This document shows, one piece after another, positions 1-9,902 of a stretch of DNA of 11,784 nucleotides. Numbering within the stretch: the first letter of the stretch is position 1; every line of letters begins with the position of its first letter. Below the pieces are notes generated by a model. That model saw nothing but the letters and a program-made list of their open reading frames with translations. It did no database searches and had not been told where the DNA came from. The translations under genes were made by a program, and so were the position numbers. The stretch is from a bacterium (GTDB lineage Bacteria; SM23-31; JAUVVT01): positions 1 through 11,784 of the forward strand of contig JAUVVT010000015.1 of NCBI GenBank assembly GCA_030604505.1, written 5' to 3'.

Positions 1-1184
1 AAGATAAATATATATTGCAATATAATACCAATGATGTTATTGAAGGATTAAAAGATGTAATAAATATAGTCGGTGCAAAAAAGGGAGTAATCGCATTAAA
101 AAGAAAATATAGAAAAATTGTAAGTTTAATAAATGATGCTGTTAAGAATGAAGAAAATATAGAAACTTTTACACTCAATGATTTTTATCCGTCAGGAGAT
201 GAACATATACTTGTCAATGAAATTACAGGACTTGTTGTTCCGGAAGGTGGAATTCCTCTTGATATTGGAATACTTGTCAATAATGTTGAAACAATATTAA
301 ATATTAGAAATGCTCTAAAGGGGAATTCCGTGACCAGAAAAACCATATCGGTTATGGGGGCTGTCAAATATCCAAAAGTAATAAACGTTCCTATTGGTAT
401 TTCTATTAACGAGGTGATTGCACTCATTGGTGGAACAACTGTTTCGGATTTTTCTGTTATAGTTGGCGGACCGATGATGGGTGAGGTTATTAATGATTTG
501 GATATTCCTATAAACAAACTTACAGCAGGAATAATTATTCTGCCTGCGGATTCGTTTCTTGTAACAAGAAGCAAAATACCATTTGAAAGGAATCTGAGAT
601 TATCGGCATCTGTATGTCTTCAATGTATTGAATGTACAGTATTGTGCCCAAGAAATCTTCTTGGTCATTCAATCAAACCGAATGAGATTATGAGGTCAAT
701 AAATTATAAAAAGATTGAACCGACAGACATCTTTACCGCATCATTCCTTTGTTCAGAATGCGGTATATGTGAAATCTACGGCTGTATAATGGGAATTTCA
801 CCAAAAATGGTTTACGTCAGAGTAAAAAAAGAATTAATTGCTCAGGGGGTGAGAAACCCTCATAATAATAAAAAACCCGTTCCTAATAAATTCATAAAAG
901 AGAGAAGAATTCCTGTCGACAGGTTGACTAACAGGCTTCGGCTTCCTCAATACGATGTGATGCCGGAATATAACGATATGGAAGTAATTGCCTCAGATGT
1001 AAAAATAAATCTGCTTCAGCATTATGGCGTTCCGGCGGAACCTGTGGTTAAGGTCGGTGACCTCGTGAAAGAAGGAGAAGTAATTGGAAAAGTTCCTGAT
1101 GATAAAATCGGTGCTTATGTTCATGCATCTATTAAAGGAACTGTTGCAAATATAAATTCTGAATATATAGAAATAAAGGCATAA
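1..1184 (+). CDS. pduS: PduS-like RnfC-family Fe-S flavoprotein (cobalamin reductase homolog), 5' partial; the ORF is open to the window edge
   Basis: There is no in-frame stop between position 3 and the TTG at 15, and the translation lacks the N-terminal GxGGAGFP nucleotide-binding segment, so about 70 residues lie upstream of the window. Strong PduS-like blocks are present: GVIALKRKYRK, FYPSGDEHIL, IGILVNNVETILNI, VTRKTISVMGAV, VPIGISINEVIALIGG, GGPMMG. There are two ferredoxin-type Cys motifs, CLQCIECTVLCPRN (CX2CX2CX3CP) and CSECGICEIYGC. The C-terminal barrel-sandwich segment VVKVGDLVKEGEVIG...YVHASIKGTV resembles the RnfC N-terminal and PduS C-terminal domain. It ends at TAA 1182-1184. 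Confidence 0.8.
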   Translation, partial: DKYILQYNTNDVIEGLKDVINIVGAKKGVIALKRKYRKIVSLINDAVKNEENIETFTLNDFYPSGDEHILVNEITGLVVPEGGIPLDIGILVNNVETILNIRNALKGNSVTRKTISVMGAVKYPKVINVPIGISINEVIALIGGTTVSDFSVIVGGPMMGEVINDLDIPINKLTAGIIILPADSFLVTRSKIPFERNLRLSASVCLQCIECTVLCPRNLLGHSIKPNEIMRSINYKKIEPTDIFTASFLCSECGICEIYGCIMGISPKMVYVRVKKELIAQGVRNPHNNKKPVPNKFIKERRIPVDRLTNRLRLPQYDVMPEYNDMEVIASDVKINLLQHYGVPAEPVVKVGDLVKEGEVIGKVPDDKIGAYVHASIKGTVANINSEYIEIKA

Positions 1185-1201
1185 AATATAAAGGAAATAA
1201 A

Positions 1202-1816
1202 GTGAATAATTCAAATAAAGACATTAATAATAAATCCGATAATAAGAGTAATACCTTAAGTGATTATAAGATGCCTGCAATTGCATTACTGGAATTTTCG
1301 AGTATTGCCGCAGGAGTCTCTTCTACTGATGAAATGATAAAAAAGGCAAAGATCGAAGTATTGGAATCTTCTCCAATCTGTCCCGGAAAATATCTGCTTT
1401 TGATTGCTGGAGAAGAAGGAGAAGTCGAAGCATCTTTTAAAAAGGGAAAAGAAATTTCAGATGGTTGGATTGTTGATGAACTCTTTATTCCAAATATTCA
1501 TAAACAGGTAATTCCTGCTATTAATGCTACAACTCAGATTAAAGACCTGAAAGCTATTGGGGTTATTGAAACATTTTCAGTTGCATCAGCTATAATTGCG
1601 GCTGACCAATCCGTAAAGAATGCTAATATCGATTTGATTGAAATTCGGCTTGCAAAGGGAATCGGAGGTAAAGCATTTTATACTTTTACCGGTCCTCTTG
1701 AAGAAATAGAGGCGGCAGTGGTGGCAGGTTCGGAATACCCAGAAAGTGTCGGATTAATGGTAAATAAAATCATTATTCCAAATCCAGATAAAAACATCTA
1801 TGAATTTATTTTGTGA
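1202..1816 (+). CDS. pduT: BMC-T shell protein, PduT-like, with tandem BMC (Pfam00936) domains and a conserved pore cysteine
   Basis: Two BMC domains are visible: AIALLEFSSIAAGVSSTDEMIKKAKIEVL... and AIGVIETFSVASAIIAADQSVKNANIDLIEIRLAKGIGGKAFYTF. The match to Salmonella PduT is close: SSPICPGKYLLL vs KTICPGKFLLM, IPNIHKQVIPAI vs LANIHPSVLPAI, IIPNPDK vs VIPRPHE. The Cys in ICPGKY corresponds to the PduT Cys38 that ligates a 4Fe-4S cluster. The GTG start at 1202 has a good SD (AAGGA, 6-nt spacer). An alternative ATG at 1271 (MPAIALLEF) aligns exactly with the PduT N-terminus and would remove an N/K/S-rich 23-aa extension. Confidence 0.85.
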   Translation: MNNSNKDINNKSDNKSNTLSDYKMPAIALLEFSSIAAGVSSTDEMIKKAKIEVLESSPICPGKYLLLIAGEEGEVEASFKKGKEISDGWIVDELFIPNIHKQVIPAINATTQIKDLKAIGVIETFSVASAIIAADQSVKNANIDLIEIRLAKGIGGKAFYTFTGPLEEIEAAVVAGSEYPESVGLMVNKIIIPNPDKNIYEFIL

Positions 1817-1902
1817 TATGGTACAATTTACGAAGTTTGAGTTTTTCATTATAGCCAATTCGTAAATCTAAAATCGTGTTTTGTATTTACAGGAGACAAA
1901 CA

Positions 1903-2202
1903 GTGCATCTCGGAAGAGTAATAGGCAACATTACAGCAACCAGGAAATATTCTGAGCTAAAAGGAGAGAAATTTATGATAATTGAACCTGTTGACCATTC
2001 CCTCCAGAAAAAGGGTGTGTCGGTCATTGCGATTGATGTTGCTCAGGCTGGTGAAGGAGATATTGTATATTTCATCGAGGGTAGAGAAAGTACTTTCGCA
2101 CTCGATTTTTATTACGTCCCTGTTGACGCAACAATTGTGGGAATTGTTGATAACGTTTATAAGGATAAAATATTATTTGGAGAATCAAGTGATACTATGT
2201 AG
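1903..2202 (+). CDS. BMC-P vertex (pentamer) shell protein, EutN/PduN/CcmL family, paralog 1
   Basis: VHLGRVIGNITATRKY...KFMIIEPVD...VIAIDVAQAGEGDIVYF...ATIVGIVDNV is the typical EutN_CcmL (PF03319) pattern. The start is probably the GTG at 1903, 7 nt after AGGAGA (1890-1895); the ORF track begins at an upstream GTG at 1876. About 99 aa. TAG stop at 2200-2202. Confidence 0.8.
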   Translation: MHLGRVIGNITATRKYSELKGEKFMIIEPVDHSLQKKGVSVIAIDVAQAGEGDIVYFIEGRESTFALDFYYVPVDATIVGIVDNVYKDKILFGESSDTM

Positions 2203-2464
2203 AGTGCTCGGAAATGTTACTTCAACTGTAAAACATCCTGAATATTCTGGAAAGAGGATTATGCTTGTGCAGCCGGTAAATCCTGAAACCTGTGAACCGT
2301 TGAGCAAATCATTCTTGTCCGTCGATACAGTATCATCCGGACCGGGAGAGATTGTGCTTGTAAACAAAGAGGGTGGCTCATCACGAATTGCTGTACGAAA
2401 TGAATGGGCTCCTGTTCACAGCACTATTACTGCTATTGTTGATAGTATTGATTTAAAAAAATAA
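2189..2464 (+). CDS. BMC-P vertex (pentamer) shell protein, EutN/PduN/CcmL family, paralog 2
   Basis: VILCRVLGNVTSTVKHPEYSGKRIMLVQPV...SVDTVSSGPGEIVLVNKEGGSS...HSTITAIVDSI is parallel to paralog 1 and to EutN/CcmL. The GTG start at 2189 is preceded by GGAGAA (2179-2184) and overlaps the 3' end of paralog 1 by 14 nt in another frame. About 91 aa. The upstream part of the 1982..2464 ORF is an out-of-frame shadow of paralog 1. Confidence 0.75.
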   Translation: MILCRVLGNVTSTVKHPEYSGKRIMLVQPVNPETCEPLSKSFLSVDTVSSGPGEIVLVNKEGGSSRIAVRNEWAPVHSTITAIVDSIDLKK

Positions 2465-2469
2465 AGATT

Positions 2470-2584
2470 CAAAGACACAGAGGCACGAAGATGCAAGGAA
2501 GAAAATTGTCATGTTTGAATAAAAGAGCATATTATCTTGCTTAATATTTTTATATCTTTGTGCCCTTTAGACTCTGTGTCTTTG
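2470..2584. repeat. Perfect 13-bp inverted repeat (caaagacacagag / ctctgtgtctttg) plus an inner ggcac/gtgcc pair, enclosing ~73 nt. This could be a long RNA stem-loop or a MITE-like element.
   Basis: 2470-2482 is caaagacacagag, and 2572-2584 is its exact reverse complement. The inner 2482-2486 ggcac pairs with 2560-2564 gtgcc, leaving a 7-nt bulge on the 3' side. A tiny ORF, atgcaaggaagaaaattgtcatgtttgaataa (MQGRKLSCLNK), lies inside. Confidence 0.6.
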
Positions 2585-2609
2585 CAAATATATCTGTAGG
2601 ATATTATTT

Positions 2610-3395
2610 ATGCCAGAAAGAGAAGCGAGAACAGAAATGATTAAGGTTTGCAAAAGACTTTATCAAAAGGAATATGTTACTGCTTATGACGGGAATGTAT
2701 CTATAAAGCTTAGCAGTAATAGATTTCTGATGACTCCATCAGGATTCTGTAAGGGAGACCTGACAGAAAGAGATTTAATTGTTTGTGATAATGAAGGTAA
2801 AAATTTATCAGGAGCGTATGATGTAACTTCAGAAGTAGTGATGCATTTAGAGGCATTTCGACAAAGACCCGATATTAATGCTGTCGTCCACGCCCATCCG
2901 CCTCTGGCAACGGCTTTCAGTCTTGCCGGAATTTCTATTGCAAGGTGTATTCTTCCAGAGGTCATCTTTACGCTCGGTTCAATACCAACAACAGAATACG
3001 CAACACCGACCACCCCAGAAAATGCAGATGTAATAAAGGATTTGATTAAAACACATGATGCGATGATACTCGACAGGCACGGCTCGCTTACTGTTGGAAA
3101 GGATGTCTGGTCAGCATACTTTAAACTTGAAAAAATTGAGCATACTGCAAAAATTACATTTGTCGCAAGACAGCTCGGTTCAATTAAAACCCTTTCATCT
3201 GAACAATTGAAAGCGGTTGCTGTAATTGCAGAAAAATTCGGTGTGCAAAGTGTCATCCAGGATTGCTTTAATTGCGGTGCCTGCGGAAAAGAGGTATCGG
3301 AATCCTCCGATATTCAGCATTCCGATAAGAATGAAAATGTAATTGAAAATGTTTCTAATGCAATTACTAATGAAATACTTAAAACTTATGGCTGA
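2610..3395 (+). CDS. Class II aldolase/adducin-family protein (L-fuculose-1-phosphate / L-rhamnulose-1-phosphate aldolase-like) with a ~45-aa C-terminal extension, a putative BMC encapsulation peptide
   Basis: YDGNVSIK...MTPSG...E..MH...AVVHAHPPLATAF (HxH zinc ligands) is diagnostic of FucA/RhaD/AraD class II aldolases. The catalytic domain ends near residue 215. It is followed by CFNCGACG, an acidic/Ser linker, and the amphipathic ENVIENVSNAITNEILKTYG. An SD-like AGGA sits 8 nt upstream of the ATG. TGA stop. Confidence 0.8.
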   Translation: MPEREARTEMIKVCKRLYQKEYVTAYDGNVSIKLSSNRFLMTPSGFCKGDLTERDLIVCDNEGKNLSGAYDVTSEVVMHLEAFRQRPDINAVVHAHPPLATAFSLAGISIARCILPEVIFTLGSIPTTEYATPTTPENADVIKDLIKTHDAMILDRHGSLTVGKDVWSAYFKLEKIEHTAKITFVARQLGSIKTLSSEQLKAVAVIAEKFGVQSVIQDCFNCGACGKEVSESSDIQHSDKNENVIENVSNAITNEILKTYG

Positions 3396-3441
3396 TGAAA
3401 TTATTATTGAACTTTTTTAAAATTAAGATGTTTATATAATT

Positions 3442-3879
3442 ATGGAAATACTGAAAAGATACGGCTCGGTTGTTTCATTATCAGGAGGCATTGCATATGT
3501 CTTTATGAGACATGAGAATGAATGCTCCGGAGACCACAACCAGTGTCCTTTTAAGGACAGCCATGTAAATACTATAATGATGAAAGAGTTTATTATTACT
3601 GCGAATAATAAAATAAATTCAAAAATCGGGCAGTTTGTGGAAATATCGGTATCGGAAAAGAATTTAAGCCGGTTTGCATTTTTATTATTCATCTTTCCGC
3701 TGTTGATGATATCTTTAGGTGCTATGCTTGGATATTTCATATCTGATGATTTTACTTCATATAATAATTTATTTTCAGTAATCGGTGGAATTTTCGGACT
3801 TTTATTGAGTATATACATTATCAGATTAATAGAAAAAAGGTCTAAGAATTCCTTTAATATTACTAAAGTAATCGCCTAA
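3442..3879 (+). CDS. RseC/MucC-family (SoxR-reducing / sigma-E regulator C-like) small membrane Fe-S protein
   Basis: The N-terminal GSVVSLSGGIAYVFMRHENECSGDHNQCPF matches the RseC G.V.S...A.V...CS.C....C pattern. GQFVEISVSEKNL is followed by two hydrophobic helices (FAFLLFIFPLLMISLGAMLGYFI and VIGGIFGLLLSIYIIRLI), as in E. coli RseC (GQKVELGIAEGSLL..., ILGGIGGFLIA). Confidence 0.65.
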   Translation: MEILKRYGSVVSLSGGIAYVFMRHENECSGDHNQCPFKDSHVNTIMMKEFIITANNKINSKIGQFVEISVSEKNLSRFAFLLFIFPLLMISLGAMLGYFISDDFTSYNNLFSVIGGIFGLLLSIYIIRLIEKRSKNSFNITKVIA

Positions 3880-3966: not shown

Positions 3967-3994
3967 TCACTGTTGGTGTTGTCACCAACGGTGA
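3967..3994 (+). terminator. Candidate rho-independent terminator hairpin downstream of the RseC-like gene
   Basis: tcactgttggtg-ttgt-caccaacggtga forms a 12-bp stem (one G.U pair) with a 4-nt loop, followed by ttaatttctcc. It sits in the 225-nt gap before the next gene. Confidence 0.35.
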
Positions 3995-4236
3995 TTAATT
4001 TCTCCAACAGAAAATAAAATTATAGATTATTAATAAACTATTTTTTATATTGTAAAAATTGTACCGCCAAAAAATTAACATTAAAAAATCAAGCTATACA
4101 AAAAATGAAATCAAAACCCGATTGTATCCCTTGTTATTTAAAGCAGGTTTTATCTGCTTCAAAAGAAGTAACTGATGATTCTTCCGAAATATGGAGGATT
4201 TGAGCAGAAACCTCAAAAATAATTCCCAACTTTTCA

Positions 4237-4965
4237 ATGGATGCATCACCTGCGGAAAATTCAACCTATTCAATTTGGAAGGCAAACGAAATATTTAACA
4301 CAAAAGATCCTTTTGAAAAAAAGAAAAAATACTACAATGAGAAAGCTCTTTCAATGTATCCGGAGTTAATAAAAATGGTCGAAGATTCTGAAGACAGCTT
4401 TGAAGCCGCAGCAAGAGTGGCTGTAATAGGAAATGTTATCGACCTCGGAATATCGACAAATATAAATATAGAAAAAGCCATAGAAGAAGTCTTTTCAAGC
4501 GGATTTTCAATAAATCACATTAATTTTCTAAAAAATGATCTGAAATCTGCAAAAATGCTATTATATCTCGGGGATAATGCCGGCGAAATAGTTTTTGATA
4601 GAATTTTTATCGAAGAAATAAAGAAGTATGGAGTAGAAGTTGTTTTTGCTGTTAAGAGTGCCCCTGTATTAAATGATGTTACGGCTGTTGATGCACATGG
4701 TACAGGTATAGATGAGATTGCAAAGGTCATTGAAACAGGTTCTCCTATGATCGGAGTGATTTTAAAAACATGTTCCGATGAATTTCTGAAATATTTTAAT
4801 GAGGCGGATATTATTATTAGTAAAGGGCAGGGAAACTTTGAAACATTGGACGAAACAGATGCAAATATTTATTTTATTCTAAAAGCAAAATGTGATGTCG
4901 TTGCTGAAAGACTTAATGTTAAAATCGGTGACGTAATGCTGATTAAGAATAAAATTCTGAAATAA
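4237..4965 (+). CDS. DUF89 / ARMT1-like metal-dependent (damage-control) phosphatase. The conserved N-terminal 32 codons (4105-4200) are in the same frame but cut off by an in-frame TGA at 4201-4203.
   Basis: GNVIDLG, LGDNAGEIVFD and SKGQGNFE are DUF89 (PF01937) signatures. Upstream, ATG 4105 encodes MKSKPDCIPCYLKQVLSASKEVTDDSSEIWRI, the family's CxxC N-terminus, then TGA, then AETSKIIPNFS and the Met at 4237, all in one frame. It is either a pseudogene or sequencing error, or a recoded or read-through stop. Confidence 0.7.
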   Translation: MDASPAENSTYSIWKANEIFNTKDPFEKKKKYYNEKALSMYPELIKMVEDSEDSFEAAARVAVIGNVIDLGISTNINIEKAIEEVFSSGFSINHINFLKNDLKSAKMLLYLGDNAGEIVFDRIFIEEIKKYGVEVVFAVKSAPVLNDVTAVDAHGTGIDEIAKVIETGSPMIGVILKTCSDEFLKYFNEADIIISKGQGNFETLDETDANIYFILKAKCDVVAERLNVKIGDVMLIKNKILK

Positions 4966-5096: not shown

Positions 5097-7313
5097 ATGT
5101 CTAAGTTTTTTACAAAACTATTATTATTCTTGGCCATATTTTATTTATCCCCGGATATTTCTCTGTCAAATGAAAAAATTTTATCTGAAATAATACACAA
5201 AGCACAACAGAATAATCGTAAAATTTTTGAAAGTATCGATAATCTAAAATACAAGGTTCATTCAAGAACATACATTTACTTTGGTTTCACACCATTTGAT
5301 GTAAATCTTGTCCCATACTTTGAAGAATATTATGCTGATGGATACTGGGAAAAGCCGGACAGCACCGCTCTTAAAATATATGCCTTAAAAGTAATTAGTG
5401 CAGGTAAGGATTCATCAAAATCTTATTCTGTTGCAACTAAAGAATTATCCCTTCCCAATCCGTTTCTGTTCGATTACAATATTCTCTCGAAAAACAAAGG
5501 TAGTGTTCATAAACGTCCTTATTACCCTTTTTCAGAAGGAGCCGAAAAATATTACAATTACGAATATGAAGGTTTTGTAAAATCAGGAATGATGGATGTA
5601 ATTTCTATTGCCGTTACACCTAAATTTTTGGATGTCCCATCAGTTGAGGGTTCATTCTTATTAGATAGAAATGATTCCTGGATAGTCGCATCCGATTTTA
5701 AGTATAATGACGCTGCAAAATTTACTTCGCAGATTAGCAAAAAAAAGAGGTCCATCAGTATAAGTATAAAAATTACGAGTGCAGAAGAACGCACTGTCCG
5801 TACAAAGAAAAGTTTATATTATTCCCCTTTCTGGCTGCCTGAACTGATGGAAGAAGACTTTTTCCTATATATCTGGGGTATGAAAGTAAAGGTTCACAGA
5901 ATAATAGAATTTGACTCCTATGTTATTAATACCCCAAATTTCAAAACTGTAAAACCGGCTAAAAGAATTGAATATTCCATTGACAGTCAGTTGCAGGATT
6001 CAATTTTAACTCAACCAGAATATCCCGACAGATTATCAAAAGAAGAAGAGGAAGAGATACTGGCTAAAATTGAGGATAAAATACGTTCGGAAGAGCTGTT
6101 TAGTGACCTGAAAGACCTCGCAAAAGTTGCAGAAAAATCGGCAATGAAAAGACTAAAGGAAAAGGGGGGCAAACTCTTTTCTTATGGGGAAAGAACATTT
6201 AACTTCTTTCAATATAACAGGGTCGAAGGTCTCTATTTTGGAAATAATTATAAATTCGCAAATCCATATATTAAAAACTTTGCTCTCTCTGTTGCAGGTG
6301 GATATGGTTTTGAAGATAAAAAATTTAAAGGAGAACTGGTCTTATTAAAATTATTTGGCAAAAAAAGAAATTTTTTTGTAGATTTAAAAATTTTTAGTAA
6401 ATTAGGTTTTGAAGAAGAAGAAAATCTAATCTCTACAGGGAAAAATACATTTACTGCTCTATTTTCTAAAGAAGATTACAGAGATTATTATGCAAAGAAG
6501 GGATTTGCTTTTGACATAAGATACAAACTCCCCGAAAGCAATATAGGAATCGGTCTTTCATTTGTTTCTCAAATTGAAAGCTCAGTTGGAAAAAATACAG
6601 ATTTCAGTATTTTCAGAAGAAATCATCCATTCAGATTAAATCCTGAAGCAGTAGAAGGAAGATATAATGGATTGGAATTTTTATTGAAATATAACACCTA
6701 TCGTATAAATGCAGAAACTTATTTTAAGTACACAAACAGAGATATGCTTAAGAGTGATTTTTCTTATTCAATATTTGGCTTTAAGCTTGGATTAAAACAT
6801 AGACTCACATATTTCAGCAGATTATTTTTTAATCTGAATAGCGGCTTTTCGTCCGGTTCCGTTGCTCCTCAGAAATGGTTTGATTTTGGGGGTAAAGTTT
6901 TTGCAAATTATAGAGGCAAATTAAGAGGAGTTGATTATAAATATTTTACCGGCGACAGAATGGTCTCCAGTGTTATTGAATATCATCTTAACGGCAGAGC
7001 ATTAAAAAAGATTGGTCTGAACAATAAATTATTTTCAGCGGTGAAATTTATTTTGTATAATGGAGTTGGATGGAGCGAACTTTCTGACAGAAGTAGAAAA
7101 CTCTTAATTAGGCCACCAAGGTTGACACCTGATGGAGTTATAATTATGGATGTCAAAGGTAGAGGTAACTTAAATGTGCCGTCATTGACTACTGATGGAG
7201 TTTATTACGAATTTGGACTGGGTATCTCTGATATATTGAATATATTCCGCTTTGATTTTATTCATAATAATATAGACAACAAGATTATCTTTGAATTCAA
7301 CTTTCTCAGATGA
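5097..7313 (+). CDS. Hypothetical secreted / outer-membrane protein, 738 aa. It has an N-terminal signal peptide, a central acidic coiled-coil segment and a beta-strand-rich C-terminal half.
   Basis: The N-terminus MSKFFTKLLLFLAIFYLSPDISLS is a signal peptide. The central segment is KEEEEEILAKIEDKIRSEELFSDLKDLAKVAEK. The C-terminal ~350 aa show alternating hydrophobic/aromatic beta-strand patterning, ending ...IIFEFNFLR. I recognise no family with confidence. Confidence 0.5.
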   Translation: MSKFFTKLLLFLAIFYLSPDISLSNEKILSEIIHKAQQNNRKIFESIDNLKYKVHSRTYIYFGFTPFDVNLVPYFEEYYADGYWEKPDSTALKIYALKVISAGKDSSKSYSVATKELSLPNPFLFDYNILSKNKGSVHKRPYYPFSEGAEKYYNYEYEGFVKSGMMDVISIAVTPKFLDVPSVEGSFLLDRNDSWIVASDFKYNDAAKFTSQISKKKRSISISIKITSAEERTVRTKKSLYYSPFWLPELMEEDFFLYIWGMKVKVHRIIEFDSYVINTPNFKTVKPAKRIEYSIDSQLQDSILTQPEYPDRLSKEEEEEILAKIEDKIRSEELFSDLKDLAKVAEKSAMKRLKEKGGKLFSYGERTFNFFQYNRVEGLYFGNNYKFANPYIKNFALSVAGGYGFEDKKFKGELVLLKLFGKKRNFFVDLKIFSKLGFEEEENLISTGKNTFTALFSKEDYRDYYAKKGFAFDIRYKLPESNIGIGLSFVSQIESSVGKNTDFSIFRRNHPFRLNPEAVEGRYNGLEFLLKYNTYRINAETYFKYTNRDMLKSDFSYSIFGFKLGLKHRLTYFSRLFFNLNSGFSSGSVAPQKWFDFGGKVFANYRGKLRGVDYKYFTGDRMVSSVIEYHLNGRALKKIGLNNKLFSAVKFILYNGVGWSELSDRSRKLLIRPPRLTPDGVIIMDVKGRGNLNVPSLTTDGVYYEFGLGISDILNIFRFDFIHNNIDNKIIFEFNFLR

Positions 7314-7358
7314 TACTTATAATTAAATCTAACTTGAACTTAATATGAGAGGTGGGCC

Positions 7359-8075
7359 GTGAAATTAGCTAATATCTTCAAGAAAAATCAGATTAAATAT
7401 TTAATCGCATTATTAATCTTCTTTAATAATCTTACTTTATTATCAGCAGGTGAAATCGGTGGCGGAGTGGGATTTATGTATGGAGCTAAATTGGCAAACA
7501 TAAATGACTTAAATGACCAGCTTGTAGAGGACGGATTTCAGGAGTTTGACCCTATTTTACAATCAATAGGCGGTTTAGGTTATATTAATTATAATAAGTT
7601 TATTCTTTCGCCGGAATTTGCGAGTTTCAGTAAGAAATTAGCTTCCGGAAATACTGACATAAGCTATAAAGGTTCACAGATATTTGTTAACCTGGGTTAT
7701 GCAGTGGTGGAGGAGGAGAGAGCATTGGGATTTGTATATATTGGAGCCGGAAGGGGAAGTGCTTCTTTGAAATTTACTGATCCATCGGGTTTTGTTAATT
7801 TCGCTGATGAAGAAATCACATCCGCTGAAGAACTTAATACTGATACCTTTTTAATTAATTTGGGATATAGTTATCATTTTCTAATGAATTTTTCAAAAAA
7901 TCAGAACAGAAAGGCTGGTACGACAGTCGGAATAAGAGTAGGGTATATTTTTTCTCCCGGAGCCAAAAAATGGGAATATAGCGGAGCAGAAATAGCAGGA
8001 GCACCAGATGCTAAATTTAATGGAGTTTTTATTAGGTTAGTTATCGGTGGATGGATAAATAAAATATCTGAATAA
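7359..8075 (+). CDS. Putative outer-membrane beta-barrel protein (small porin/OmpA-like barrel), 238 aa
   Basis: GTG start with SD GAGAGGTGG. The signal peptide is KYLIALLIFFNNLTLLSA. Gly/aromatic-rich alternating strands (GYINYNKFILSPEF, FVNLGYAVV, LINLGYSYHF, GIRVGYIFSPG, FIRLVIGGWI) are typical of OM barrels. Confidence 0.5.
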   Translation: MKLANIFKKNQIKYLIALLIFFNNLTLLSAGEIGGGVGFMYGAKLANINDLNDQLVEDGFQEFDPILQSIGGLGYINYNKFILSPEFASFSKKLASGNTDISYKGSQIFVNLGYAVVEEERALGFVYIGAGRGSASLKFTDPSGFVNFADEEITSAEELNTDTFLINLGYSYHFLMNFSKNQNRKAGTTVGIRVGYIFSPGAKKWEYSGAEIAGAPDAKFNGVFIRLVIGGWINKISE

Positions 8076-8204
8076 CCTTACTCCATAAAAAAGATATTAA
8101 CCGCCAAGCATACGAAGAAAAAAAAGTAAAACAGTATAAAAATCAATTTTCTTTCGTTTCCTTCATGTTCTTTGCAGTTAATAAAAATAAAAAAACGGTG
8201 TATA

Positions 8205-9902
8205 ATGAAAAATTTAAAAAAAATTTTTATAATTACAGCAGCCTGTTTCCTGATTTTAAATTGTGGAGGAAAAATGCAAATAACCGATTTGGTTTTGAAA
8301 AACGGTAAAATTGTAACTATTGATAAAAATAATCCAAGAGCGGAAGCGGTTGCTATTAAAGATGACAAAATCATAGCAGTTGGAACAAATAAGGAAATCG
8401 ATAAATATACCGATATTCAGGTTACCAAAATAATTGACCTTGATGAAAGACTTGTTGTACCCGGATTTATCGATGCACATATTCACTTTGAAGGTGGGGG
8501 AGCTTCTTTGATGCAGATAGACCTTAACGGTGTTACAACATTGACAGAAATTCAAAAAAGAGTCAAAGAAAAGATTGATAAGGTTGAAGATGGTATTTGG
8601 ATTTATGGGCGTGGTTGGGACCATGAAATTCTTCCCGATAAAAAATGGCCCACAAAAGAAATTATCGATGATGTTGCGCCAAAAAATCCTGTGGTGCTTC
8701 GAAGGGTCGATGGACACAGTACTCTTGTAAATAGTCTTGTCCTTAAAATTTCCGGAATTACAGGGAATACACCTGACCCGCGGGGTGGAACAATTATTAA
8801 AAAACCATCTACTGGTAAACCAACAGGAATATTAAAAGAAACCGCTCAGGGATTGATTAAAAGTCCGAAATTATCGAAAAAAGAGAGTTACGATAATAGT
8901 AAGAAAGCTATAAAATTGGCTTTAAAAGAAGCTGCAAGGTTGGGTGTTACCGGTATACATAATTTAACAGGAAACTTTGAGATTTTTCAGGAACTGCTGG
9001 ATAGAAAAGAGCTTACAGTTAGGGTTTATGCATGTGCTTCGATAACTAAAGAAAAAAAAGTATTAGAATCATACAAGGAATGGCAGAAAAAATTCACTAA
9101 TAATAAAAATATGATAAAATTTGGATGCTTGAAAGGTTTTATTGATGGAACTCTTGGTTCGGGAACAGCCGCATTTTTCAAACCGTTTGACGATAACCCG
9201 TCAACAGCCGGTCTTCCAAGAATGACTCAAAAAGAGCTCAATGAACTTGTTGCGATTGTTGATAATGAGGGCTTTCAGATTGCAATTCACGCTATTGGAA
9301 GCAAAGCAAATAATATGATTCTTAATGCCTTTGAAGAAACAATTTCCATAAACGGAAAAAGGGACAGCAGACATAGAAGTGAGCATGCTCAGGTACTTAT
9401 CCCCCAAGACATTCCGAGATTTACACAACTTGGCATCATAGCATCTATGCAGCCAACCCACTGCATTACAGATAAAAAATTTGCAGAAAAAAGAATAGGA
9501 AAAGAAAGATGCAGAGGGGCTTATGCCTGGAAAAGTCTTCTGAATGCAGGTGCACATATAGTATTTGGTACCGACTGGCCCGTTGAACCTTTAGATCCTA
9601 TGGAAGGGCTGTATGCTGCTGTTACAAGAAAAGACCGGAAAGGTGAACCGGGTGACGGGTGGTTTCCTGAAGAAAAAATCTCTATGGAAAAGGCAATAGA
9701 ATTGTATACATTGGGTTCTGCCTATGCTTCATTTGAAGAGAACATAAAGGGTTCAATTCAAATAGGCAAACTTGCTGATATAGTCGTTCTATCACAGGAT
9801 TTATTTGAAATCCCGGAAAATAAAATCATGGATACAAAGGTGGTTTATACAATAATAGGCGGCAAAATAATCTATTCTTCAATCACAGATGCAGCAAATT
9901 AA
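8205..9902 (+). CDS. Amidohydrolase-family (Amidohydro_3, YtcJ-like) metal-dependent hydrolase, lipoprotein
   Basis: VPGFIDAHIHFEGGG is the canonical amidohydrolase metal-binding motif, and GTDWPVEP is a C-terminal family motif. The ATG at 8205 gives MKNLKKIFIITAACFLILNCGG, a lipoprotein signal with an LNC lipobox. The ORF track starts at an upstream TTG at 8172. Confidence 0.8.
   Translation: MKNLKKIFIITAACFLILNCGGKMQITDLVLKNGKIVTIDKNNPRAEAVAIKDDKIIAVGTNKEIDKYTDIQVTKIIDLDERLVVPGFIDAHIHFEGGGASLMQIDLNGVTTLTEIQKRVKEKIDKVEDGIWIYGRGWDHEILPDKKWPTKEIIDDVAPKNPVVLRRVDGHSTLVNSLVLKISGITGNTPDPRGGTIIKKPSTGKPTGILKETAQGLIKSPKLSKKESYDNSKKAIKLALKEAARLGVTGIHNLTGNFEIFQELLDRKELTVRVYACASITKEKKVLESYKEWQKKFTNNKNMIKFGCLKGFIDGTLGSGTAAFFKPFDDNPSTAGLPRMTQKELNELVAIVDNEGFQIAIHAIGSKANNMILNAFEETISINGKRDSRHRSEHAQVLIPQDIPRFTQLGIIASMQPTHCITDKKFAEKRIGKERCRGAYAWKSLLNAGAHIVFGTDWPVEPLDPMEGLYAAVTRKDRKGEPGDGWFPEEKISMEKAIELYTLGSAYASFEENIKGSIQIGKLADIVVLSQDLFEIPENKIMDTKVVYTIIGGKIIYSSITDAAN

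Follow-up and report, generated by a model that had tools for sequence, protein, structure and literature searches.

The 11,784-bp contig JAUVVT010000015.1, analysed here over its whole length and called the window, begins with six genes on the + strand (3-3879) that probably make up the downstream half of a compact catabolic bacterial microcompartment (BMC) operon, a metabolosome, of the HO/SPU5 group. They encode a PduS-like flavo-Fe-S protein, a PduT-type tandem shell protein (BMC-T), two BMC-P shell proteins, a class II aldolase extended at its C terminus and a small RseC-like membrane protein, and all six scored above the Pfam gathering thresholds. A prediction made earlier from the sequence (the original prediction) had named the same six genes and had read them as the 3′ end of a BMC locus comprising electron-conduit and vertex components; the Pfam assignments behind that description hold. 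It had also taken the pairing of PduS/PduT with an aldolase bearing an encapsulation peptide (EP) to be no textbook arrangement. This part did not stand: in the catalogue of Sutter 2021 (Supplementary Data 2), the pairing occurs in MIC4, MUF3 and SPU5 loci and in satellites of PVM, ACI and HO loci. The locus belongs to a known, catalogued and functionally unsolved BMC type; the gene reading was right and the combination is not new.

The HO/SPU5 group holds the main structural model shell, that of Haliangium ochraceum, and its substrate is still unsolved. What the analysis adds for the window itself is chiefly a correct annotation and a wider taxonomic range of the type. The source lineage is low in GC, uncultured and poorly sampled, and its closest named relatives are in candidate division KSB1 (62-66% amino acid identity).

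The operon in the window and in its relatives

The PduS-like gene (3..1184, + strand) is cut by the contig end, as the original prediction had seen when it described the gene as running off the 5′ edge. The truncation is an assembly edge and no biological feature. The gene retains 393 codons, and about 46 N-terminal residues are absent relative to a 439-aa homolog (P0001), with which the fragment shares 93% identity. Because the window is the complete contig, the genes 5′ of PduS can be deduced from relatives only. Looking up the exact sequences of the window aldolase, RseC and amidohydrolase brought up no contig longer than the window. Scanning of metagenomes returned SDBU01003551.1, which was already known, and two short contigs, while scanning of genomes returned one close contig of a metagenome-assembled genome (MAG) and three deltaproteobacterial or myxococcal loci. 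These three loci have PduS and single-layer BMC-T (BMC-Ts) genes, and no aldolase was detected within their fetched flanks.

One relative, L002, is 92.8% identical to the window DNA over 3,052 nt and carries the C-terminal 99 residues of an aldehyde dehydrogenase (AldDH) directly upstream of PduS. The full operon was read from L001 and L004 (~65% PduS identity) and L008 (74% aldolase identity); PduS identity in the syntenic loci is 65-77%. In L001, L004 and L008 the order is RpiR regulator, BMC-Tdp, BMC-H, BMC-P, AldDH, PduS, BMC-Ts, BMC-P, BMC-P, aldolase and RseC. Upstream of the RpiR gene, the relatives have unrelated or divergent genes (radical SAM, HD, ThyX).

The upstream products were characterized in these relatives. 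The RpiR-type regulator has HTH_6 and SIS domains. AldDH is a 474-aa protein of the EutE/PduP type (NF011927, 652 bits) with an amphipathic, EP-like N terminus (MEISEIEIKRIIEQVVEKI), and judged by sequence these N termini look like encapsulation peptides. A single BMC-H of 97-113 aa is present, closest to HO-5815 among natural solved proteins. It is accompanied by a carboxysome-like BMC-Tdp of 204-211 aa, which resembles CcmP/CsoS1D, contains PF27545 and matches the CcmP model NF053796 near its cutoff (292 bits, cutoff 340). The best PDB match of BMC-Tdp is HO-5816 with 286 bits, compared with 238 for CcmP and 216 for CsoS1D. This combination of one BMC-H with a carboxysome-like BMC-Tdp was seen in the relatives only.

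The original prediction had placed AldDH, PduL/phosphotransacylase (PTAC), BMC-H and alcohol dehydrogenase genes just upstream of the window. AldDH and BMC-H genes were found in every relative whose contig reaches that far. The other half of the forecast failed, as PduL/PTAC and alcohol dehydrogenase, and likewise deoxyribose-phosphate aldolase (DERA) and RpiB, were in none of the syntenic operons examined.

The same arrangement extends well beyond the lineage of the window. A Nitrospinota MAG (L012) has the same ten genes in the same order, with 40-80% identity gene by gene. A Pseudomonadota MAG (L013) has the same operon minus PduS, its genes also in order and 40-80% identical to their counterparts, and, by gene content, is an HO-like, PduS-less form of it. 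Thus the ten-gene order RpiR, BMC-Tdp, BMC-H, BMC-P, AldDH, optional MNdh (the PduS-like protein), BMC-Ts, BMC-P, BMC-P, aldolase is kept in at least three phyla, which supports the class II aldolase as the conserved non-redox cargo enzyme.

The MNdh/BMC-T^SE module and the BMC-P proteins

The PduS/PduT pair was renamed MNdh/BMC-T^SE by Sutter 2024 (PNAS), where it is described as a general NAD+ recycling module of many non-B12 BMC types (PMC11626177). The original prediction had described the pair as best known from B12-dependent propanediol compartments, a link that this wider distribution does not support. In the pair from Clostridium botulinum, NADH is oxidised and the electrons pass via three [4Fe-4S] clusters to the shell exterior (PMC11626177). 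MNdh/PduS differs from RnfC in a circularly permuted domain order, with PF13375 at the C terminus (PMC11626177).

The window protein has this order. In the 393-aa fragment, PF01512 spans residues 1-102 (84.5 bits), the SLBB domain PF10531 residues 115-160 (28.7 bits), the 4Fe-4S dicluster domain Fer4_17 (PF13534) residues 205-266 (42.4 bits) and RnfC_N (PF13375) residues 331-387 (48.9 bits), so that PF13375 is C-terminal. Two 4Fe-4S motifs are present, CLQCIECTVLC (nt 615-647) and CSECGICEIYGC (nt 750-785), and both are invariant in the four closest PduS homologs. Close homologs are few. Only three were found, with 93, 74 and 65% identity, and the next are at 44-48%; most other PduS homologs share about 40-48% identity with the window copy.

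The neighbours of the gene are those expected of MNdh. The adjacent BMC-Ts carries the pore motif ICPGK, and AldDH lies directly upstream of PduS in L001, L002, L004, L008 and L012. The C-terminal PF13375, the two 4Fe-4S motifs, CPGK in the adjacent BMC-Ts, the AldDH and the lack of an operon-borne alcohol dehydrogenase are all shared with the MNdh/BMC-T^SE module. There are 361 loci that have the pair and lack alcohol dehydrogenase (PMC11626177), and by its gene content the present operon is one more of them.

The BMC-T gene (1202..1816, + strand) encodes two PF00936 stretches (127 bits), and the Cys of its ICPGK motif is Cys60 (nt 1379-1381). With a tandem PF00936 arrangement predicted to be single-layered and a cysteine at the pore, the protein is, as judged from its sequence, a BMC-T^SE. 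Its best PDB matches are 3NWG and PduT (3PAC/3N79), ahead of HO BMC-T1 (5DIH), with the C-P-G-K column aligned. HO BMC-T1 is cysteine-less, whereas the window BMC-Ts is nearer to the PduT-type proteins. The (I/V)CPGK column falls at the pore position where the [4Fe-4S] cluster of PduT is ligated.

When the BMC-Ts proteins were compared, (I/V)CPGK was found at the pore in the window, L001, L008 and L012. The protein of the PduS-less L013 (8864-9454, GCA_043799175.1) has LTPGK, that is, TPGK and not CPGK. In the published survey, the CP(G/S)K motif is conserved only beside PduS homologs (PMC11626177), and the tracking of CPGK with PduS among the present loci reproduces this rule. L013, having neither PduS nor the pore Cys, serves as a natural control for the MNdh/BMC-T^SE pairing.

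The BMC-T also has an N-terminal extension of ~23 aa (nt 1202-1270), which is rich in Asn, Lys and Ser and poorly conserved in the clade. It is probably translated, because the L001 and L008 proteins lack a Met where PduT usually starts.

The two BMC-P genes of the window follow. The first (1903..2202, + strand, PF03319 83.6 bits) is the second of a triplet of paralogs. Its longest open reading frame starts at 1876, and the true start is likely the GTG at 1903: AGGAG is found at 1891-1895, 7 nt 5′ of this GTG, and the L001 and L002 orthologs start equivalently. The other (2204..2464, + strand, PF03319 62.8 bits), the third of the triplet, uses a GTG start one base past the preceding stop. It shares 82-94% identity with its positional orthologs and ~30-37% with the neighbouring paralog. 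The remaining member of the triplet is located between BMC-H and AldDH in L001, L004, L008, L012 and L013. Both window BMC-P proteins match the HO BMC-P of 5V74 and 4I7A.

The class II aldolase and the type of compartment

The aldolase gene (2610..3395, + strand) encodes a 261-aa FucA-like protein, probably of the Zn type (PF00596 158.8 bits). Its core (residues 1-209) resembles YgbL/OtnC, FucA and DrdA, with ~25-30% identity and TM ~0.9 of the target over ~210 columns. Residues N29, E75, H94, H96 and H157 align with N29, E73, H92, H94 and H155 of FucA. As they are invariant in 75 homologs, the protein is very likely an active metal-dependent enzyme.

Past the ~210-residue core of the solved FucA/YgbL structures, the protein continues for ~50 residues. 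In the AlphaFold2 model (mean pLDDT 87.8), residue 209 is followed by a moderately confident segment, residues 232-241 are disordered, and residues 241-260 (nt 3330-3389) form a helix. The amphipathic moment of the tail is 0.53, compared with 0.35 +/- 0.09 for shuffled versions, 3% of which are as high. A disordered linker followed by a terminal amphipathic helix is the usual layout of encapsulation peptides. The EP-like tail named in the original prediction is borne out by the model, and from this architecture we infer that the C-terminal helix would act as an encapsulation or targeting peptide.

Between the core and the helix we noted the motif C-x2-C-G-x-C-G-(K/R), with C219, C222 and C225 (nt 3264-3284). 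The CxxCGxC motif is present in 104 of the 120 closest aldolase homologs and in 73 of the 75 aligned ones, and the homologs that lack it have other Cys-rich linkers instead. It is independent of PduS, being found in the PduS-less L013 as well. The motif may bind a metal or an Fe-S cluster, or act as a redox switch. Two further aldolases, from L010 (10001-10771, 61% identity) and L011 (3606-4388, 52% identity), have both the Cys motif and the C-terminal helix. No shell genes were found within 10 kb of either, and these two may be satellite cargo genes or orphan copies.

With these parts, the compartment could work as follows. A ketose phosphate, sensed by the RpiR regulator, would enter the shell, plausibly via the gated pore of BMC-Tdp. 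The Zn-type class II aldolase, targeted to the lumen by its C-terminal helix, would cleave it to dihydroxyacetone phosphate (DHAP) and a short aldehyde. Encapsulated AldDH would then convert the aldehyde to acyl-CoA and NADH, as expected for its family. MNdh, bound to BMC-T^SE on the lumen side, would regenerate NAD+, a task that would fall to it because the operon has no alcohol dehydrogenase. By analogy with the C. botulinum pair (PMC11626177), the electrons would flow from FMN through two [4Fe-4S] clusters to the [4Fe-4S] cluster of the BMC-T^SE pore and to an acceptor outside. Since the operon has no PTAC, acyl-CoA would exit, or CoA would be exchanged, or PTAC would be encoded elsewhere.

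The assignment to the HO/SPU5 group comes from comparison of gene content and shell proteins with the catalogued types, and the likeness to SPU5 and HO type II rests on text descriptions of gene content (Sutter 2021). According to Supplementary Data 2 of Sutter 2021 (Nat Commun), SPU5 has DERA in only half of its loci and no RpiB. In the same source, SPU5 resembles the present operon in its enzymes, an AldDH that carries an EP at the N terminus and a pfam00596 aldolase that carries one at the C terminus, and in its shell genes: three BMC-P, only one BMC-H, a BMC-Ts that has a pore cysteine and accompanies PduS and, optionally, a carboxysome-like BMC-Tdp. Both also lack RpiB. Both termini are found here, the AldDH N terminus in the relatives and the aldolase C terminus in the window, with the EP role predicted from sequence for the one and from the model for the other. 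As far as these SPU5 entries go, the present operon differs in ending with an RseC-like gene and in coming from a low-GC, KSB1-related lineage. HO type II has two BMC-P genes and the aldolase in its main locus, and the HO AldDH is closest to those of SPU5 and SPU7 (Sutter 2021). Together with H. ochraceum, the relatives have HO-5816-like BMC-Tdp and HO-5815-like BMC-H, and two BMC-P genes and the aldolase stand together. HO main loci, however, are usually devoid of PduS, and in H. ochraceum the BMC-Ts lacks the pore cysteine, whereas the window operon has both.

MIC4 and MUF3 operons also combine PduS with a PduT-type BMC-Ts that has the pore Cys and with a pfam00596 aldolase, and MIC4 occurs in KSB1 and Ignavibacteria, as described by Sutter 2021. 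By the same descriptions, these types carry PTAC and acetate kinase and no BMC-Tdp, whereas the syntenic operons have neither PTAC nor acetate kinase.

Several points weigh against the HO/SPU5 reading as given here. The upstream half of the operon lies outside the window and is known from the relatives. The choice between SPU5, HO type II and a new subtype is not settled, these being compared by descriptions. CoA recycling is unexplained, as PTAC is missing from the syntenic operons. FucA Tyr113 aligns with Leu115 of the aldolase, there is no Tyr in that segment, and all NCBIfam equivalog models score far below their cutoffs, the best being OtnC (125 bits) and FucA_Meth (117 bits); because of this, the aldolase substrate cannot be named. 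Finally, there may be a distal, EP-bearing DERA, as suggested for some HO genomes.

The last point leads to the alternative that the operon belongs to a true SPU (deoxyribose-phosphate) compartment, with DERA and RpiB encoded elsewhere and the aldolase as an accessory enzyme, e.g. one that condenses DHAP with glyceraldehyde 3-phosphate. Such a condensing role is proposed in the SPU paper, the regulator is of the RpiR type with a SIS domain, in some HO genomes a DERA with an EP-like extension is encoded away from the locus, and SPU5 is filed under SPU by Sutter 2021 even though DERA is in only half of its loci. However, neither PF01791 (DERA) nor PF02502 (RpiB) was found in the window or in the DNA retrieved on either side of the operon in L004, L008, L012 and L013 (at most 10 kb, and less where a contig ended early, as several did), so membership of canonical SPU was rejected on gene content. 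Across the three phyla, no non-redox cargo enzyme other than the aldolase is conserved in the operon, and the aldolase has a targeting-like tail. We consider this alternative unlikely.

A fucose/rhamnose compartment of the PVM or PVM-like type that acquired PduS/PduT, in which fuculose or rhamnulose 1-phosphate would be split by the aldolase to yield lactaldehyde, was the lead that the original prediction had drawn from the aldolase. It is now very improbable. In its favour, the aldolase keeps the Zn and Glu residues of FucA, PVM loci likewise encode a class II aldolase extended at its C terminus, and PduS/T pairs are satellites in 20 PVM genomes (PMC11626177); PVM and the present operon further share an aldolase-type signature enzyme that feeds AldDH and an excess of BMC-P over BMC-H genes. 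PVM, however, has no BMC-T and another gene order, whereas here BMC-Tdp and BMC-Ts are both present, the HO shell is the nearest match for the shell proteins, and the gene order is that of the HO/SPU5-like loci of other phyla. As PTAC, acetate kinase, a lactate/malate dehydrogenase-like gene and DeoR are likewise missing from the syntenic operons, whose regulator is RpiR, PVM membership was rejected. We assign next to no probability to a PDU-like B12-dependent compartment with PduS as a cobalamin reductase. PduS and PduT were originally described from the pdu operon, but they are widespread in non-B12 BMC types (PMC11626177). PDU membership was rejected because no PduCDE diol dehydratase, reactivase or adenosyltransferase gene was found in any syntenic operon examined.

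The RseC-like gene, RNA elements and downstream genes

The RseC-like gene (3442..3879, + strand, RseC/MucC domain PF04246 80.7 bits, cutoff 24.4) is the last gene of the operon in the clade of the window. It lies 46-74 bp past the aldolase gene in the window, L001, L008 and L009, and the orthologs at this position in L001 and L008 have 50% and 60% identity. Homologs were sought in all fetched loci and were found only in this clade, not in the Nitrospinota and Pseudomonadota versions of the operon. RseC/MucC proteins have two transmembrane helices at the C terminus, and in the window protein two hydrophobic segments are visible by eye. The RseC protein of E. coli has an N-terminal cluster of four Cys; the window and L008 copies have two Cys and the L001 copy three.

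In acetogens, rseC genes are commonly located beside rnfC and are needed for Rnf function (PMC9124969). By analogy, this makes a link between the RseC-like protein and the RnfC-like MNdh plausible, and as a speculation the protein may serve MNdh as a partner or acceptor. If so, it could be the outside acceptor of MNdh/BMC-T^SE and could tie the compartment to the membrane. Plain neighbourhood conservation could also explain its presence, since the DUF5686 and 238-239-aa genes are syntenic too: L008 has DUF5686 and a 239-aa gene past RseC, as the window does.

No paper connecting RseC with microcompartments was found in the open-access literature searched, and neither the accessible catalogue text nor the searchable open-access literature on BMC aldolases describes the CxxCGxC tail motif. 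To the extent of these sources, neither the motif nor the clade-specific RseC gene has been described. We give a slim chance to the combined idea that CxxCGxC binds a metal or Fe-S centre and ties the cargo to redox state or shell assembly, with the RseC-like protein as partner or outside electron acceptor of MNdh/BMC-T^SE. The tail motif and the RseC gene are cheap leads on electron export from microcompartments.

An intercistronic stem-loop is predicted between the shell genes and the aldolase gene (2470..2583, + strand), with a minimum free energy of -42.1 kcal/mol and a z of -4.2. L002 has it too, L008 has a counterpart of different sequence, and L001 and L012 lack it. It might set the ratio of shell to cargo expression or mark an RNA processing site. 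Rfam gave no match anywhere in the window, this stem-loop included. A terminator-like hairpin 3′ of the RseC gene (3967..3994, + strand) has a 12-bp stem with 6 GC pairs and then a T-rich tail. Promoter-like and terminator-like sites in the region are not commoner than in shuffled sequence, and the hairpin is therefore weak evidence.

Past the operon, a gene for an ARMT1/DUF89 damage-control phosphatase (4105..4965, + strand, PF01937) is broken by an in-frame TGA at 4201-4203. Read through, it covers PF01937 positions 3-309 of 311 with 247 bits, and the 4237-4965 open reading frame alone scores 218 bits. The stop may mean that the gene is a pseudogene, that the assembly is wrong here or that the codon is recoded. 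An ARMT1-like gene is absent at this place in L001 and L008, where DUF5686 comes directly after RseC. In the window, the DUF5686 protein (738 aa) and a 238-aa protein without a Pfam match are encoded at 5097..8075 on the + strand, and the order RseC, DUF5686, 238-239-aa gene is conserved in the clade of the window. An amidohydrolase gene is located at 8172..9902.

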